From IMG/VR virus record IMGVR_UViG_3300021093_000004: a stretch of DNA of 64,000 bases; one strand, 5' to 3'. The stretch is from a virus. Its lineage: Duplodnaviria > Caudoviricetes. Below the pieces are notes generated by a model that saw only the letters and a program-made list of their open reading frames with translations, was not told the DNA's origin and searched no databases. A program made the position numbers and the translations under genes. Each line of letters opens with the position of its first letter. The stretch's first letter is position 1. Below, piece after piece: positions 5,081 through 15,404 of the stretch.

Positions 5081-7939
5081 ATGCCAGTATACTTAAGTCC
5101 GGGCGTTTTCCCGCGAGAAATCGATCTGAGCGTGTTGCCAACGGCAGTGGGTCCACTTCGGCCAGCATTCATTGGTACTGCCAAGAAAGGGGCAATGAAT
5201 CAGCCGTTGTTTATATCCAATTCTCAACAAGCCCTCGAAACATTCGGCGAACCGTTCCCCGAAAGTTATTTGATGTACGCAGTGCTTGCCTTCTTGGAAG
5301 AAGGTAATCAGTGCTACGTTATGCGGGTCGGTGTTGAATGTGAAGACGGGCAACCAGATGAACTATCTGACATCTGTATCGACACCTCTGGCGGTCGTGG
5401 GAAAGGCTGGGGACGAATTCCTCTTTTCACTGGCATTGATTACGGTCGTATCAATCTTCGCCAAATTTCTGCGGATAGCCCCGTAACGTTCCATAACGCT
5501 GACGTAGCTAATATCGAATACAACGATGTTGATGTGTCCGGCACACACGGTCCAACTAACGCCACTCTCAACACCCTTGGGACCTATACCGGCGAGATCG
5601 ATGACTCTTACGTCATGATTATCGCGTCGGCACCCGACGCTTCGGCATTTGCATCAGTTCAAGGTGCCGCATTCCAAGTTATTCGAAATAGTGACGGTGA
5701 GGTTGTTGCCGAAGGCACGCTCGAAGACGGCAACGATGATGGAATCTCTGAATGGATTCCGATTGGTGATGGTTTGTCGGTTCGAGTGAACGTCACATCT
5801 GGCGTTTTGGACGAAAACGACACCTTCACTTTCACGGTGCAGCCAAATAACCGTTCGTTCTCGGTGTCCGTTGAAGGTGGTTCGGCGACTGTCTACCAGA
5901 TGCCGATTGCATCGTACACCACAGTTGACGACTTTGTTGCCGCGTTCAATGCGGTGATTGTTGCTGGTGGTGAAGATTACTTGATGGTCGAATACACGCT
6001 GGAAGACGGCGATACCGTTATCCCGCAATTGCGAACGACCACCGCTGGCGAACGCATTCAAATTATAACTACCAGTGCGTGGGCGCAGGAAGTCGGAAGT
6101 CAACAATATGCATGGGATATTCCCCGCTCGTACTTGCTTGGTCTCGATGCTGGCCTATATGCGATCACCACGCAAAATAACCGCGTCAAGATCAATGCTA
6201 TTGGCCAATCCGCAACAAAGACCATCGAATTCAATGTGCCTGTTGGTCTGGGCCAGACTGCTGCTGCCATTGCGAATGTCATTGATCTGGCTGGTATCGT
6301 CGCAGGCGACGTTATTTGGGATTCGTTTGAATTGACCGTTCCGGGCGGCAACACCCACGTAGTGATTGTCACATCACCGGGGCATCAGTTTGATACACTC
6401 CATATGCAGGCCAGCTTCTCTAACCTCAAAACATTGCGGTTTGCGGAAGAATTGAACATTCCATATCCGTACAAGCGGGCCTACCGTGGCTTCAACGACA
6501 ATCGGTTGACCTTACCAAATTCTGGCGAAGTTACCGCCGCAACGCCATTGTCCTGCGAAACTGATCCATTTGGTGCTGATTGTGCGGCTGATACAGCCTA
6601 CTTCCAGAATATCGTAGGATGGCTGGTCGCTCCTAGCCCCGGAACATGGGTCGAGGGTGCCTCTGCCACCTTGGAACTGTTCACCGAAGGATTGGGTGAC
6701 TCCGCTGGTCGGTACAAGCTGACCATCAAAGACGCGAACAAGCAAGTTGTTGATATTGTTGAAGACCTGTCATTCGATAAACGAATCGATCGGTACATCG
6801 CCAACGTCATCAATGCAGGAACTGAATATGGCGGAACCAACGGTAACGCCTACATGAACTGGGAAGAACGTCCGGCGTTCTTGAACAACAACGTCAATGA
6901 TCTCTCAACATTTGAAGTGCGGCAGCCGTCGCAACTCAATGAGAAAGAATACCAAGGTCAGGAAAACGGTATTCCGACCGATCCAGCATTTTCTAGCGAA
7001 TTGGATGCTGCGGTGATTGGTAATCCCGCCATCAGTTCTGGAATCTACGCATTTCAGAATCCTGAAACGCTGGATATCAACCTGTTGCTCACACCCGGAT
7101 TCTCAACTGGGGCTGTCATCGGAACGGCATTGCAAATGTGCGAAAGCCGTGGTGACGTGCTTTACATCGTTGACCCACCGTTCGGCCTCCGACCGCAACA
7201 AGTTGTCGATTGGCACAACGGTATGCTCCTTTCTGATCTCCAAGCAGCGATCAACAGCAGCTACGGTGCATTGTACTGGGGCTGGATTCGGGTGTTCGAT
7301 CAGTTCACTGCCGATGAACTTTGGATTCCGCCGTCTGGACACATTTCGGCGGTCTTCTCGCGAACCGCTCGCGAAGCAGAGCAATGGTTCGCTCCTGCCG
7401 GTCTTCGCCGTGGTCGATTGCTCACCGCACTCGATGTCGAATACTCACCGACACAGGGCGAACGCGACTTGCTATACGGTTCTGGCAATTCGGTTAACCC
7501 GATTGTAAAGTTCCCGCAAGACGGAATCACGGTCTGGGGTCAGAGAACTCTCCAAAGATCTCAGTCGGCTCTAAATCGTGTAAACGTCAGAATGCTCTTG
7601 ATCTATGTGAAGAAGAATTTGGTTCGCTTGCTCAGAAACTTCATCTTTGAGCCAAACGACAGAATTCTTTGGAGACAGGTCAAGGCGACGGTTGACCCAT
7701 TCCTTTCTGACATCCAAGCTCGTCGTGGTCTGACGGCTTTCAATGTCGTCGTGGACGAAACGAACAACACGCCGGAAAGAATTGACCGGAACGAGTTGTG
7801 GGTTTCGGTCTTCCTGAAGCCAACGCGAGCCGTTGAATTTATCGTGCTGAACCTTGTGGTTCTCCGAACAGGAGCGAGCTTCTCTGCTGAAGAGGTCTTG
7901 GCTGCTGGCGGCATTGTGACTTCGGCAACAGCCGTATAA
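5081..7939 (+). CDS. Contractile tail sheath protein (gp18-like)
   Basis: YLSPGVFPREID N-terminus; WFAPAG, WGQRTL, RVNVRML and KPTRAVEFI sheath motifs. Confidence 0.96.
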   Translation: MPVYLSPGVFPREIDLSVLPTAVGPLRPAFIGTAKKGAMNQPLFISNSQQALETFGEPFPESYLMYAVLAFLEEGNQCYVMRVGVECEDGQPDELSDICIDTSGGRGKGWGRIPLFTGIDYGRINLRQISADSPVTFHNADVANIEYNDVDVSGTHGPTNATLNTLGTYTGEIDDSYVMIIASAPDASAFASVQGAAFQVIRNSDGEVVAEGTLEDGNDDGISEWIPIGDGLSVRVNVTSGVLDENDTFTFTVQPNNRSFSVSVEGGSATVYQMPIASYTTVDDFVAAFNAVIVAGGEDYLMVEYTLEDGDTVIPQLRTTTAGERIQIITTSAWAQEVGSQQYAWDIPRSYLLGLDAGLYAITTQNNRVKINAIGQSATKTIEFNVPVGLGQTAAAIANVIDLAGIVAGDVIWDSFELTVPGGNTHVVIVTSPGHQFDTLHMQASFSNLKTLRFAEELNIPYPYKRAYRGFNDNRLTLPNSGEVTAATPLSCETDPFGADCAADTAYFQNIVGWLVAPSPGTWVEGASATLELFTEGLGDSAGRYKLTIKDANKQVVDIVEDLSFDKRIDRYIANVINAGTEYGGTNGNAYMNWEERPAFLNNNVNDLSTFEVRQPSQLNEKEYQGQENGIPTDPAFSSELDAAVIGNPAISSGIYAFQNPETLDINLLLTPGFSTGAVIGTALQMCESRGDVLYIVDPPFGLRPQQVVDWHNGMLLSDLQAAINSSYGALYWGWIRVFDQFTADELWIPPSGHISAVFSRTAREAEQWFAPAGLRRGRLLTALDVEYSPTQGERDLLYGSGNSVNPIVKFPQDGITVWGQRTLQRSQSALNRVNVRMLLIYVKKNLVRLLRNFIFEPNDRILWRQVKATVDPFLSDIQARRGLTAFNVVVDETNNTPERIDRNELWVSVFLKPTRAVEFIVLNLVVLRTGASFSAEEVLAAGGIVTSATAV

Positions 7940-7983: not shown

Positions 7984-8571
7984 ATGCCAGGATTTAACGT
8001 TCAACCATTCGGCGGTGGTTATTCTGCCGAAGGACCGTCGAATACGGTTGAAGTGCGGCGTAAGCACCGTTGGGTTTTCGAAACCCTCGGTCGCGGTACG
8101 AGCACCTTCTCCCAAGCTGAACTGTTGGTGCTACAATCGGCGTCCCGGCCAAGCTTCAAGTTTGAAGAAACGGACATGCACCATAACCAAGAACAGGTAT
8201 GGTTTGCTGGTAAGCAGAACTGGGACCCAGTTACCATGGTGTGGTACGACGTTGAACAGTCACCCGATATTTCGCGTGGTATTTACCACTGGTTAGAAAC
8301 CGTGGTGAACATGCAAAGCATCGCGGTAGCACACCCGCGATTCTACAAGAGAACCGCTTCGCTTATTCTGCTCGACGGTACTGGACAAACCACGGAACAA
8401 TGGCAAATGTTTGGTACGTGGCCAGTAACGATCAACTGGCAGGAACTCGATTACACTTCGACGGACCTGATGACCTGCGAAACCACAATGCGATATGATC
8501 GTGCGGTCCGGACGTGCCTTCAGGCTCCAGGCCCGCAACCGATTTCGCCGAACTGCCCACAAGGGAGCTAA
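7984..8571 (+). CDS. Tail tube protein (gp19-like), probable major tube
   Basis: Follows the sheath; GKQNWDPVTMVWYD, WQMFGTWP and LDY..D...RYD tube motifs. Confidence 0.88.
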   Translation: MPGFNVQPFGGGYSAEGPSNTVEVRRKHRWVFETLGRGTSTFSQAELLVLQSASRPSFKFEETDMHHNQEQVWFAGKQNWDPVTMVWYDVEQSPDISRGIYHWLETVVNMQSIAVAHPRFYKRTASLILLDGTGQTTEQWQMFGTWPVTINWQELDYTSTDLMTCETTMRYDRAVRTCLQAPGPQPISPNCPQGS

Positions 8572-8601
8572 GCTTCCTAATAACACGTTACGATTCTCAA
8601 T

Positions 8602-8634
8602 GGGACCTGCGATTGCATCAATGGTCCCGTTTTT
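8602..8634 (+). terminator. Putative intrinsic terminator after tube gene 1
   Basis: GGGACC/GGTCCC stem followed by GTTTTT. Confidence 0.4.
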
Positions 8635-8645
8635 GTAGGTATGTT

Positions 8646-9239
8646 ATGCCGGGCTTTTTAATTCCGAATACGCAGCCATGTAATGAAGGATTTAAGGGTC
8701 AATCTGTATATGAAGGTCCTGATCCTAACATGGAATATGCTCGTCGGAACCGATGGATATTAGAGTTTCTCGAGCCATTTGGGGACATAAAAAACGGTAT
8801 ATTGCTCTATGCTCATAAATGCACGAGACCGACACCAGAAATCGAAGAAATTGAAATTCATCATGGACAAGATGTAATATATCGGCCAGGGAAGAATCGC
8901 TGGTATCCAATAGATTTCACGTTTTATGAAAAGGCTCCCGGAACTGGTGATGGCCCACCGACTGAAGACGAAACAGCCAGACGAATTTACGACTGGTGGG
9001 CTAGATCAATGATAAACCTCACTGAATCAAGACATGGAGAACTGGATGACTATCTGAAATATGGCAACCTACAAATGCTCGATGGAAGCGGTATAGGCAT
9101 TTGGGAATATCAATTATACGAATGTTGGCCGCTGAAAGTTTCTCCTTCTGATTTAGACTATGCAGATAGTAATATAGCAGAAATCACAGTAACTCTACGT
9201 TACAATAAAGCTAAAGAGTTCAATGCGCCGAAGCTATAA
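8646..9239 (+). CDS. Tail tube-like protein 2
   Basis: Starts MPGF like its paralogs; YQLYECWPLKVSPSDLDY...VTLRY motif. Confidence 0.8.
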   Translation: MPGFLIPNTQPCNEGFKGQSVYEGPDPNMEYARRNRWILEFLEPFGDIKNGILLYAHKCTRPTPEIEEIEIHHGQDVIYRPGKNRWYPIDFTFYEKAPGTGDGPPTEDETARRIYDWWARSMINLTESRHGELDDYLKYGNLQMLDGSGIGIWEYQLYECWPLKVSPSDLDYADSNIAEITVTLRYNKAKEFNAPKL

Positions 9240-9256
9240 AGCTAGAGAGCAGTAAT

Positions 9257-9835
9257 ATGCCAGGATTTCAAGTCCAAACATTAGGCAAGCCAGTTCCATC
9301 AACAATTCAATATTATTACACATATACGTGGTCTCTGCCAACAATTTTCGGCATCGGTGCACAAAGTCCGCCATTAGTGCTATTAAAGGAAGCGACAACC
9401 CCGACATTCACCGCGAACAAAGAGAATTACGTTGGATCAAGTCTTGAATACAAGTATGCGAAGAGCATTACTTGGGAAGATATCAAGTTAACATGGTATG
9501 ATAGTGTTGGCTTGATAGATATTATCAGAGGCTGGCGGGAATCTGTTTGGACGCCGAAGGACGGATTAAAGCCAGCCACAGAATATAAACAAACCACTGA
9601 ATTGGAATGCTTCTTGCCTACTGGTAAGAGAACATATGGATGGAAATTGAATGGTAGCTGGCCATCGCAAATTAGATGTGGTGATCTAACCTATACTAAC
9701 AGTGATGTGAAACTCGTCGAAGTCACTGTTTCATATGATTGGGCGGAAGATATCTTCTTCCAGCCAGCAGCATCTCAACAGCCACCTCCGTACGTGAGCC
9801 CGGCATTGGACGGAGGCGGCGTGCCTCTTGGTTGA
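9257..9835 (+). CDS. Tail tube-like protein 3
   Basis: MPGF start; WEDIKLTWYD, WKLNGSWPS and DLTY...VTVSYD motifs. Confidence 0.8.
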   Translation: MPGFQVQTLGKPVPSTIQYYYTYTWSLPTIFGIGAQSPPLVLLKEATTPTFTANKENYVGSSLEYKYAKSITWEDIKLTWYDSVGLIDIIRGWRESVWTPKDGLKPATEYKQTTELECFLPTGKRTYGWKLNGSWPSQIRCGDLTYTNSDVKLVEVTVSYDWAEDIFFQPAASQQPPPYVSPALDGGGVPLG

Positions 9836-11300: not shown

Positions 11301-12167
11301 ATGAGTTCGACACAACTTGCGAATGCGTTTCCGCGAATATCAGCACGTCGCGGACAGGTTGTGGATTTAAATGTGGACTTCCTACATGCCGGAGTGCTTG
11401 CTGATCCGTTCGCGGTCCGGCATATTGAGATCTATAAGACGCAAGTCGTCCCGCACAATCTGGTCGCCACGATTCCGTTGATGTTGCCGACCGATCCGTT
11501 GTACCCTGCTCCGGTGATTCGAGAGTATGAGGATGCTGAAACTGGCGAGTGTTGCACAGAACCAACAGCAGACACAATTCCCATTGCTGGCAAATACCAC
11601 TTACCATATCTGATTCCTACAGACTTCGGTGTGCCGGATGTTTACTTTGACGTCTGGTATTACTTTGCGGATAATCCGTGCGGTGAGTTAGGAACGTCCG
11701 GAACCGAATGTGATATCGATGATCCTCAATATGACGAATTCTTGTTGAAATGCTGCCACCGATTCTGGATTTATCCAGACGAGTGGATGTGCGACGATAA
11801 ATTACAGACCATACGATTTGGTTTTGAGCCGCTGGATCAGAAATTCCATCAGCCCGAATATCGTCCGTTAGAAATCGGGTTAATGCCGCTTCCGCTATAT
11901 GACTATAATTTCAATTTAGTCAACCCGATGATTCCGTTCTTGCAACCGACGATCACGATTGAAACACAACACAACGAGTTACTAGTTGATAATGACGTTT
12001 GCCGCATTGGTGTGCGACAGGGATCATATCGTTCTAATCCTTGGGTAATTCAGTACGATCTCGATACTACCAGATTTTTGAAGGGAACGTATCGATACTA
12101 CATTACCTTGAGATTACCTAACGGTGGCACTCGTGTCAGCCGTAAGTTCATCTTTACGGTTGCTTAG
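11301..12167 (+). CDS. Hypothetical protein (288 aa), probably structural
   Basis: GGAGA RBS, CAAAAATA motif upstream, long ORF. Confidence 0.75.
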   Translation: MSSTQLANAFPRISARRGQVVDLNVDFLHAGVLADPFAVRHIEIYKTQVVPHNLVATIPLMLPTDPLYPAPVIREYEDAETGECCTEPTADTIPIAGKYHLPYLIPTDFGVPDVYFDVWYYFADNPCGELGTSGTECDIDDPQYDEFLLKCCHRFWIYPDEWMCDDKLQTIRFGFEPLDQKFHQPEYRPLEIGLMPLPLYDYNFNLVNPMIPFLQPTITIETQHNELLVDNDVCRIGVRQGSYRSNPWVIQYDLDTTRFLKGTYRYYITLRLPNGGTRVSRKFIFTVA

Positions 12168-12178
12168 GGAGTAGATCA

Positions 12179-12700
12179 ATGTCAGATTCAGCGAGATCTC
12201 AGTCGCTTCAGATGGTTATTGGCGGGATACAAGAAGGACGTGCTAACCTCAGGAAAATCAAAAAACTCACGGAACGTTTGGATACTGAATGCGAGATCGG
12301 CGAAGTAGGTTTAATTAATTTCTGGAATTTATCTCCGGATATGTTCGTTGTGGCATCAACGGACGGAAGATTCCTAGAGATCAATGATTCATGGACGAGT
12401 GTACTGGGGTGGACAAAGGATGAATTATTATCAACCTCGTGGTTTGATTTTATCCATCCAAACGACGTACGTCCGACACGAGAAGTTATCGGACATATGA
12501 CGACCAACACGTTACTCCGCTTTCACAACCGGTACAGAAAGAAGTCAGGCGGATATGTCTCTTTGGAATGGAGTGCGACTCAGTGGCGTGATGGGAAATG
12601 TTACGCTGTCGCACGGCCTGTTCCATCCTTATGCCTAACCTGTCCCGAAGCGGCATCACGGTTCGGCTTTGAGGTGGAACCACATGGCGAGCACAGATAA
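12179..12700 (+). CDS. Stand-alone PAS-domain protein
   Basis: FWNLSPDMFVVASTDGRFLEINDSW..VLGW..DELL...FIHPND..RYRKKSGGYVSLEW is a canonical PAS/PAC sequence. Confidence 0.9.
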   Translation: MSDSARSQSLQMVIGGIQEGRANLRKIKKLTERLDTECEIGEVGLINFWNLSPDMFVVASTDGRFLEINDSWTSVLGWTKDELLSTSWFDFIHPNDVRPTREVIGHMTTNTLLRFHNRYRKKSGGYVSLEWSATQWRDGKCYAVARPVPSLCLTCPEAASRFGFEVEPHGEHR

Positions 12701-13106
12701 ACCCGGTGATACGTGGGCAGAGTATCGTCGTCTGGTTCTCGCTGAATTAGAACGGCTTGATGTCGCTGTATGCAAACTCGCTGAAACCAATCTCGAACAT
12801 GAAAGAGAACTGGTTGAGACTCTATCCGCATGCAAGACCGAACTGATTGAGAGATTACAGACTCTCAAAGAAATGATCGAAGATCGGCATAGACGAATAG
12901 TCGAAGATGTCAAAGCTGAATTAGAGACGAAAGAAAAGCATGATATTGACGAATTGAAGACTCTGATCAAAGCAGTGGAGGATTCTTACCACAAAGCATC
13001 AGCCGAAATTAAGGTAATTAAGGCAAAAGCCGCACTCTTTGGCTTCTTGGCCGGACTTGCCATTGCGATAGCCTCACTTGTGGCGAAATTTGTGTGGGGC
13101 AAATAG
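12684..13106 (+). CDS. Coiled-coil protein with a C-terminal transmembrane helix
   Basis: Heptad-rich body; C-terminus AALFGFLAGLAIAIASLVAKF; GAGGTGG RBS. Confidence 0.75.
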   Translation: MASTDKPGDTWAEYRRLVLAELERLDVAVCKLAETNLEHERELVETLSACKTELIERLQTLKEMIEDRHRRIVEDVKAELETKEKHDIDELKTLIKAVEDSYHKASAEIKVIKAKAALFGFLAGLAIAIASLVAKFVWGK

Positions 13107-13121
13107 CTGTATTAAAGATGT

Positions 13122-14243
13122 ATGCGATATGACCTCAGTCAATTTCGTTCCAATGCTGTTGGTGGTGTGTCTATTCCACCCGCGAAGATTATTGCATGGA
13201 TTACGAAACACTTCCAGTTCAAGACCCGAAAGGGTGGAGCAGAATATTGTATAAATAATCCGTTCGATGACGATACTGGGTATAATTTCAATATTAATCC
13301 GGAAAAAGCACGATGCCATGATTGGCGTGGCGATGAGTGGGCTGGCCCTATAAATCCGGAAACCAATCGTCGCAATTGCTCATTTATAAAATTTGTTAGA
13401 TTATACAAGAAATGCCGATATGCAGAAGCTGTCTCGGACGTTCTCGGTACCGCCGTTGACATTCGCTTCTATCTCAGGCCCGAAAACCGGCTTACCGATC
13501 AGACGGCCAAGAAAAAGATCGCCGTAGCCCTTCCTGCTGGCGTTGAACAATTAGCTTCATCGACGGACCGTCAAGCGAAGCTTTTGATCCACTGGTTAGG
13601 TACAAGAGGGTATACCAAAGACGACATCACCAAGAATGATATACACCATCTTGGAATGGATGTTTATTGGCCATACTATGAGTTCGACACACTCGTGTAC
13701 TGGCAAAGCCGGTCTCGGCTTAATAAGCGGTTCAATTTTCCATCTTTGGATGTGTACAACGAATCCGGCAAAGTCGTCGGACAGGTCGATGGGACCAAAG
13801 GAGACTTTTTGTATGGGTTTGATGATGTCGAACCGGCTAGCTATGTTATTATAACTGAAGCGATTTTTGATAAGCATACGCTTGGGGACCAAACGATAGC
13901 ATCGGGTGGTGCAATTCTTACCCCGAAACAAATCGGGAAACTGAAGATTTTGGGGCCGCGTAATGGCATTATTCTGGCTCCAGACAATGATGTCGCTGGA
14001 CTGAAAAGTGTTATTTCAAATTATCAGTTGCTATCATCACACGGATTCAATACCTATTATAGCATTCCACCATCCTTAGAATACGAGCGTGATGGCGAGA
14101 AACGATATACGAAAGATTGGAATGAAATAGGACAATTTGTTACCAGCTTCGATAAGGTACGTAAACTGCATGACGATGGAATTCGGAAGATTACCGAAGA
14201 AGCCTTAGTCGAATTAGATGAACGGATCGCATGTTTAAAATAA
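13122..14243 (+). CDS. DNA primase (DnaG/gp61-like, TOPRIM domain)
   Basis: VIITEAIFD, ILAPDNDVAG TOPRIM motifs; degenerate N-terminal Zn-binding region (YCINNPF...CHDW). Confidence 0.82.
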   Translation: MRYDLSQFRSNAVGGVSIPPAKIIAWITKHFQFKTRKGGAEYCINNPFDDDTGYNFNINPEKARCHDWRGDEWAGPINPETNRRNCSFIKFVRLYKKCRYAEAVSDVLGTAVDIRFYLRPENRLTDQTAKKKIAVALPAGVEQLASSTDRQAKLLIHWLGTRGYTKDDITKNDIHHLGMDVYWPYYEFDTLVYWQSRSRLNKRFNFPSLDVYNESGKVVGQVDGTKGDFLYGFDDVEPASYVIITEAIFDKHTLGDQTIASGGAILTPKQIGKLKILGPRNGIILAPDNDVAGLKSVISNYQLLSSHGFNTYYSIPPSLEYERDGEKRYTKDWNEIGQFVTSFDKVRKLHDDGIRKITEEALVELDERIACLK

Positions 14244-14664: not shown

Positions 14665-15255
14665 TTAATCGCCCGACATTGAACGTCCGACAGCTTCCTC
14701 CACTTTTTCGGTGAGTTCGTATAACGGATCTGTCTTTCTGATGGTAGAAAGATTCTGTGGGGTACGAACTTCGTAGGCTTGCTCGAGAGCGAAAAGAACG
14801 GTGAACTTGGTTCGTCCACCATATTCTTTACGTGTTTCGATTTCAACGACCAATCCTGGATTGCAGGATGGGTCCATCAACCGGTCTTCGCTGATGGTAC
14901 TGAATCCGTGAAGACCGATTCCGTGGGCGTCTTGGTGCAGTTCGACCCACTTGAAGTTGTGGCACTTGTTCTGCGTACCCACAATAGCAGCCTCGATAGC
15001 CATTCTATCGAGTGTGGCTCGATCAATGGGTTTGTATCCGTCCCGCCGCTGCCCGGAGATTTTGGTTTCGACGAATCGAGCGGCTGAATAGTCGGCGGCA
15101 AATGGTTCAGTTTTCGCTTGACCCTTCGTTCCGATCCGGCCCCATCGTCGTGTGACGGTTTTGGTTGCTAAGTCGTATACAATCGTCCAAAATTTGTTGT
15201 GGCCGGTACCTTGATGGACGAACAATTGTTCGTCTTTGTACTTGTCTCCCCACAT
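14665..15255 (-). CDS. WGR-domain protein
   Basis: HNKFW.I...VTRRWGRIGTKGQ...K...GY is the WGR signature; GGAGG RBS before ATG 15255. Confidence 0.88.
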   Translation of the reverse strand: MWGDKYKDEQLFVHQGTGHNKFWTIVYDLATKTVTRRWGRIGTKGQAKTEPFAADYSAARFVETKISGQRRDGYKPIDRATLDRMAIEAAIVGTQNKCHNFKWVELHQDAHGIGLHGFSTISEDRLMDPSCNPGLVVEIETRKEYGGRTKFTVLFALEQAYEVRTPQNLSTIRKTDPLYELTEKVEEAVGRSMSGD

Positions 15256-15404
15256 AGTAAATCCTCCTGGTAACATAGGATGGTAACGTCGATGTTATGT
15301 GACGATGACTTCTATATTGGTTAAATACAGTGATATGACATACTTAATTATTTTCGGAATCCATATTATTTTAGCAAGCATCCGGATCTCGAATTGATCA
15401 AGAG

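Follow-up and report, generated by a model that had tools for sequence, protein, structure and literature searches.

Results

Genomic setting of the gene pair

The window, a stretch of 64,000 nucleotides that is part of a 100-kb viral record (IMG/VR IMGVR_UViG_3300021093_000004; Duplodnaviria, Caudoviricetes), carries two overlapping plus-strand genes: one for a stand-alone PAS protein of 173 aa (12179..12700, +), the other for a tail-anchored helical membrane protein of 140 aa (12684..13106, +; hereafter the TM protein). Identical proteins were found on contigs of up to 235 kb. The pair lies in a tail gene cluster with profile matches to T4-like neck, tail completion, sheath, tube, and baseplate hub genes, and the virus is therefore assigned to the T4-like jumbo myoviruses. 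The order, 5' to 3', is sheath, three tube-like genes, baseplate hub, a 288-aa gene, the PAS gene, the TM gene, and a primase-like gene, so that the virion morphogenesis region named in the earlier note is indeed where the pair resides.

Two genes mark the slot. Upstream, the 288-aa core gene of unassigned function (11301..12167, +) adjoins the baseplate hub, is 51–87% identical across all relatives, and is present with or without the pair, hence outside the module; it had no match in Pfam, PHROG, or NCBIfam. Downstream, a primase-like Toprim gene (13122..14243, +) lies among the tail genes in every relative, which is unusual for a replication gene. A search for promoters and terminators at the pair gave no signal above chance.

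Other features of the cluster were recorded in passing. Three tandem tube-like (gp19-type) genes, two of them with a Pfam match, follow the sheath gene (window 7984-9835); in close relatives a Mom-family gene, absent in the window, lies between sheath and tube genes (L007:2613-3944; L008:2650-3951). A stand-alone WGR-domain protein is encoded on the opposite strand (window 14665-15276, -) and is kept in several relatives.

The PAS protein

The PAS gene has an ATG start and the ribosome site AGGGAG. Its product matches Pfam PAS_3 (E 2e-11; 44 bits against a cut-off of 25.6) and TIGR00229 (E 7e-14); the AlphaFold model (pLDDT 84) has a PAS alpha/beta fold, with PDB 8px4 as best structural match in Foldseek (rmsd 1.4 A, E 5e-11). 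The 173-aa protein belongs to the PAS domain superfamily by profile score over cut-off and by fold. A long N-terminal helix (residues 3–37, described as short in the earlier note), a PAS_3-type core (about residues 47–148; 12317..12622, +), and a C-terminal CxxC tail account for all 173 aa, and no kinase, cyclase, or DNA-binding output domain was found, as had been read from the sequence at the outset. Homologues are 135–189 aa long.

The CxxC (C152-C155; 12632..12643, +), noted earlier as a C-terminal CLTC, is indeed present at 152–155; only 13 of the 19 clade members have a CxxC there, with variable middle residues, and it is therefore not essential. It fits a possible, optional redox or metal site. 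Two cofactor types were considered for the core and rejected. A LOV flavin sensor is contradicted by the cysteines, which occur only at 38, 141, 152, and 155 and none at the motif position; a heme-PAS of the FixL/Dos type is contradicted by a threonine at the equivalent of the proximal histidine (by inspection). Only 13 of 25 sequences have H106. The window PAS protein has no FixL or DosP match; the partner protein of locus L192 matches both.

The TM protein and its family

The TM gene has its own ribosome site (GAGGTGG) and overlaps the PAS gene by exactly 17 nt, as first reported. Its product was modelled as one helix (residues 10–139). A single hydrophobic transmembrane helix (residues 116–134; 13029..13085, +; KD 2.37) is followed by six residues; ahead of it, a lysine-rich stretch points to a cytoplasmic N-terminus, and the predicted topology is N-in/C-out. 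The earlier description as a coiled coil ending in one transmembrane helix thus stands for the all-helical build and the anchor, and less so for the coiled coil, of which the heptad pattern is weak.

The sole strongly conserved part is the signature WxEYxxLVLxELERL (residues 11–25; 12714..12758, +), proposed here as the site that receives the partner helix. By this signature (WxEYxxLVLxELE in the family at large) the TM protein belongs to a widespread phage family that no Pfam, PHROG, or NCBIfam model covers. A profile search gave 1,043 clusters with E values of 0.001 or less, part of the weak ones likely being plain coiled coils, and 74 at 1e-10; among the matches listed, members are 67–177 aa long and nearly all end in a hydrophobic helix. 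The family occurs in many aquatic and soil phages, and the match counts from DNA pattern scans of viral and metagenome contigs for the WxEY family are to be read as "at least". No cultured phage record matched either gene of the pair or three distant members, PDB matches to the family were generic coiled coils, and the search found no longer fused forms of the WxEY motif, which is weak evidence.

The closest models are the XhlA-like "hemolysin" PHROGs (1193/937) and DUF7201 (PF23831), all matched weakly. DUF7201, a viral family of about 111 aa, is the closest named cluster by language-model features (0.92); five family members match it weakly (best E 2e-4), the window TM protein has no Pfam match to it, and we found no paper on this uncharacterised family.

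A helix shared by unrelated partners

Residues 22–34 of the PAS protein (12242..12280, +) form a 13-residue amphipathic helix with the consensus xNLxKLRxLxEEL, a candidate docking and output helix. In unrelated phages, genes upstream of the WxEY gene begin with the same pattern, and the helix is common to PAS, cupin, receiver, and helix-only partners. In 40 of 75 other viral loci, where 3.9 were expected, a profile built from the clade only scored highest across the locus in the gene directly before the WxEY gene; with an extended profile, made from the clade profile and its viral-locus matches, that preceding gene came first in 43 of 96 metagenome loci, against 10.9 expected, and a few of these loci belong to the clade. 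Held-out phage PAS partners scored a median near 21 bits and the window PAS protein 24.9, against at most 9.4 for 30 bacterial PAS_3 proteins and at most 6.1 for 30 bacterial receivers; the helix is therefore not a generic PAS linker.

The cargo on this helix varies. PAS partners include PAS_3, PAS_4, PAS_9, and FixL-like PAS domains; their pocket residues vary, and some partners (L023, L077, L079) are degenerate. A cupin is the partner in L187. Receiver partners occur in three loci (L236, L235, L351), each with the helix in the C-terminal position that a receiver output usually takes; L236 scored 29.5 bits against a background maximum of 10.8, L235 and L351 scored weakly, and two of the three lack the phospho-acceptor Asp (by inspection). 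About 22 of the 75 partners are shorter than 100 aa and have no sensor domain; helix-only partners form a helical hairpin of 58–91 aa. Upstream of many short TM-family members the helix partner is missing.

In these comparisons the conserved unit of the partner is the helix, not the PAS domain, and the 13-residue motif is best read as a contact and output element because three different folds carry it, at either of two positions in the protein, next to one neighbour gene. The earlier note missed this putative portable helix with swappable sensor cargo, which we take to be the main point of the locus. The partner helix and the helix of the TM protein probably interact; covariation between the two over 75 pairs was 0.139, against 0.162 at 95% of shuffles, which was not exceeded.

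Two further arrangements were seen at WxEY genes. In L297, L302, L328, and L353 the upstream gene encodes another type of partner of about 80 aa, with an N-terminal transmembrane segment, an NSRLDEL helix, and a weak helix-profile score. In two phages (L154:1989-2711; L094) a gene for a membrane-anchored trypsin-like protease directly follows a helix-only pair.

Inheritance and selection

The slot survey, anchored on the upstream 288-aa gene, covered 53 loci, 39 of them scorable after dereplication. Between the 288-aa gene and the primase-like gene, both genes of the pair were present in 20 of the 39 and neither in 19; one alone was never seen, so that a lack of co-occurrence, which the earlier note had named as damaging, is not what the relatives show. 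On the tree, gain and loss amount to at least seven joint changes, of which the strongly supported branches alone force only one. Distances of the PAS and TM proteins correlate with each other (Mantel 0.60) and with those of the anchor 288-aa gene (0.56 and 0.59, respectively).

Against L007, pN/pS was 0.16/0.82 for the PAS gene and 0.25/0.77 for the TM gene; both are under purifying selection, the PAS gene more strongly, and GC3 of both matches that of genome and neighbour genes. Joint inheritance, pN far below pS, the GC3 match, and the tracking of the anchor gene together show that the pair is not a recent isolated fragment of host origin, the other outcome named beforehand as damaging. It is an accessory, since the TM gene is absent from a complete 408-kb relative in which four positive controls were detected. 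The pair is real, conserved, widespread, and, as far as the literature was searched, undescribed.

Some individual loci deserve mention. In L033 the PAS gene is intact and the TM gene (L033:6358-6789) is frameshifted near 6450-6490, by assembly error or decay; stop-codon recoding, considered for its three TAG stops, was rejected in favour of the frameshift. Two lineages have a cysteine-rich HNH-like gene (by inspection) between the TM and primase-like genes (L019:6199-6801; L066:5623-6255), and in L041 (6570-10391) three tandem paralogues of a 360–470-aa gene follow the TM gene. Elsewhere in the 408-kb relative (L232:1063-2283, -), a 307-aa protein with two transmembrane segments ends in a PAS domain without output and is followed by a 91-aa coiled-coil gene.

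Lysis genes near the pair

A verified lysis neighbour was found in only six of roughly 170 loci, only two of them with a helix partner (raw count): Amidase_3 in L187; GH108 and holin_10 in L228; VanY in L270; M15_4 (weak) in L244; GTA_holin_3TM in L289; and holin_10 (weak) in L253. All six are small phages. Most loci in large T4-like phages are surrounded by capsid, neck, portal, and prohead genes, with no lysis enzyme. None lies near the pair in the window, and four common families of endolysin (SLT, Amidase_3, phage lysozyme, and M15_3) were all absent from five clade records of jumbo phages (G000, G001, G002, G004, G006), two of them near complete. The TM protein passed no holin family cut-off.

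In two relatives (L017:5893-8505; also L018) a different set of genes fills the slot of the pair: a receiver with a C-terminal transmembrane segment, a LydA-type holin (PHROG holin E 2.5e-6; Pfam E 5e-5, below the cut-off), and a GAF-PAS membrane protein of 596 aa without output domain. This is a second cassette of sensor and holin, not homologous to the pair, in which sensors without output are again linked to a membrane protein, in this case the holin.

A recognised holin is also present in L228, L253, and L289, so the TM protein is there more likely an accessory regulator than the hole-former. The lysis genes of T4 are not clustered. LysA2b of mycobacteriophage D29, which regulates lysis and has one transmembrane segment, has its gene among the tail genes, at a distance from those of the lysis enzymes (10.64898/2026.08.27.747656); given this precedent for dispersed lysis genes, the lack of a nearby enzyme makes the lysis reading less probable without overturning it. 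On gene context, we consider a role of the TM protein in lysis somewhat more probable than none.

Discussion

Comparison with known systems

Three systems resemble the pair in part, and it appears to be a member of none of them; in its proposed working it comes nearest to the first. RIII of phage T4, a small cytoplasmic antiholin, binds the N-terminal amphipathic helix of holin T (PMC12162936); a further paper (PMC8385771) also treats this holin T/RIII antiholin system. Both arrangements combine a one-TM membrane protein bearing an N-terminal cytoplasmic helix with a small soluble partner, the binding of which we infer for the present pair. T has a large periplasmic domain and superinfection is sensed through RI, whereas the pair has nothing outside the membrane; unlike in T/RIII, about 115 aa lie in the cytoplasm, and a PAS, receiver, or cupin domain is part of the partner. 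No Pfam or PHROG match and no sequence similarity to T or RIII was detected.

We know of no sensor partner of XhlA, the second system. XhlA of Bacillus PBSX (PF10779) likewise has a helical cytoplasmic part and one C-terminal transmembrane helix, and is an accessory membrane protein alongside a separate holin and endolysin (PMC5589764). The XhlA/holin-like label of the earlier note suits this architecture and does not extend to family membership: the window TM protein has no match to PF10779, and its best relative (E 0.018) is far under cut-off. The third, LysF1b/LysA2b of mycobacteriophages, have a single transmembrane segment and a large cytoplasmic part, as here, are non-essential, and affect lysis timing (PMC13056207; 10.64898/2026.08.27.747656); their topology is opposite (N-terminal transmembrane segment, N-out/C-in), and they work with a two-TM holin in place of a soluble sensor.

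VqmA-Phage of vibriophage VP882 is a phage-encoded PAS sensor as well; its PAS domain shares a chain with a DNA-binding domain, and its action is on qtip transcription in the lysis-lysogeny decision (PMC8284805). The PAS protein of the pair has no such domain; its link to lysis is putative and its output would be by protein-protein contact at the membrane. Literature searches combining PAS with holin, PAS with jumbo phage, or receiver with holin, which largely did not cover subscription journals, returned no description of the pair.

Proposed mechanism and alternatives

We propose that the two genes form a translationally coupled switch made late in infection. The C-terminal helix would anchor the TM protein in the inner membrane and leave about 115 residues on the cytoplasmic side; the protein would act as an accessory holin-type lysis regulator, not as the sole holin. 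The 13-residue partner helix would pack on its WxEY helix, and the partner would hold or release the TM protein in the manner of RIII, which holds holin T by its amphipathic helix. Together with its CxxC tail, the PAS domain may respond to a ligand or redox state in the cytoplasm by altering how available the helix is; in other phages, receivers and cupins would have an equivalent role, and helix-only partners would be constitutive versions. That the PAS domain passes a signal is, in our judgement, moderately favoured. The whole, a swappable sensor that gates an accessory regulator of lysis, loosely as in T4 T/RIII, comes close to an even chance without quite reaching it. Our estimates for the helix interaction, the role in lysis, and PAS signalling are approximate and depend on one another. 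The lysis-timing switch of the earlier note therefore remains the best reading by gene context, tempered by the lack of a lysis neighbour at most large-phage loci.

Those same large-phage loci, among capsid, neck, portal, or baseplate genes, would also suit a sensor-gated membrane device with a late role other than lysis, whether it tethers head or tail assembly to the membrane, excludes superinfecting phages, or controls a membrane protein of the host, and so would a TM protein without holin family match in a clade in which no endolysin was recognised. About half of the clade, a complete genome among them, does without the pair, however, so it is no core factor of assembly; it has moved among phages of unrelated type and into differing positions, six loci adjoin lysis genes, and the alternative content of the slot includes a holin. 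We regard such a device as rather unlikely. Signalling would be dispensable altogether if the helix neutralised or stabilised a membrane-toxic protein, as in a toxin-antidote or chaperone pair, with the PAS domain as dimerisation scaffold or passenger. Three unrelated signalling folds (PAS subfamilies including FixL-like, receiver, cupin) on one helix speak against this, since a passive scaffold needs none of them, as does the stronger purifying selection on the PAS gene than on the TM gene; the abundance of helix-only partners, the varying PAS pockets, the degenerate partners, and the two receivers lacking the Asp point the other way, and leave this explanation quite unlikely.

The earlier note had also raised a decoy that heterodimerises with and poisons a host PAS kinase, the TM gene being an unrelated neighbour. 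The arrangement of helix and PAS does resemble linker-PAS segments of bacterial kinases and cyclases, but within the clade the PAS gene never occurs without the TM gene, receiver, cupin, and helix-only partners with the same helix replace PAS and keep the TM partner, and the motif was not found before the 30 bacterial PAS_3 control domains; the idea is poorly supported and very improbable.

Known inputs to lysis control are membrane energy, superinfection (T4 RI/RIII), and quorum signals at the level of transcription (VqmA-Phage). If the lysis-regulator reading is true, the pair would add a new route to these, by way of a post-translational switch whose cytoplasmic sensors can be exchanged. 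In its widest form, which we think somewhat unlikely, the pair would stand for a widespread and undescribed kind of signalling module in phages, coupling interchangeable sensors (PAS of several ligand types, phospho-receiver, cupin) through a portable 13-residue helix directly to a tail-anchored membrane protein, and lysis time would be set by the internal redox, metabolite, or phosphorylation state of the host. The two conserved helices offer defined residues, and the idea is testable in a laboratory strain without phage culture.

A possible host link

When binned genome contigs were scanned for the TM family, four of 19 matches were true; these were mostly phage contigs inside bins, and hosts were therefore not assigned from bins. 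One locus within a 3.2-Mb Latescibacterota contig (L226:415-1238, -) has a small TM gene, a gene for helix and PAS-like domain, and a TM gene, and is a possible prophage and a possible host link for the family.
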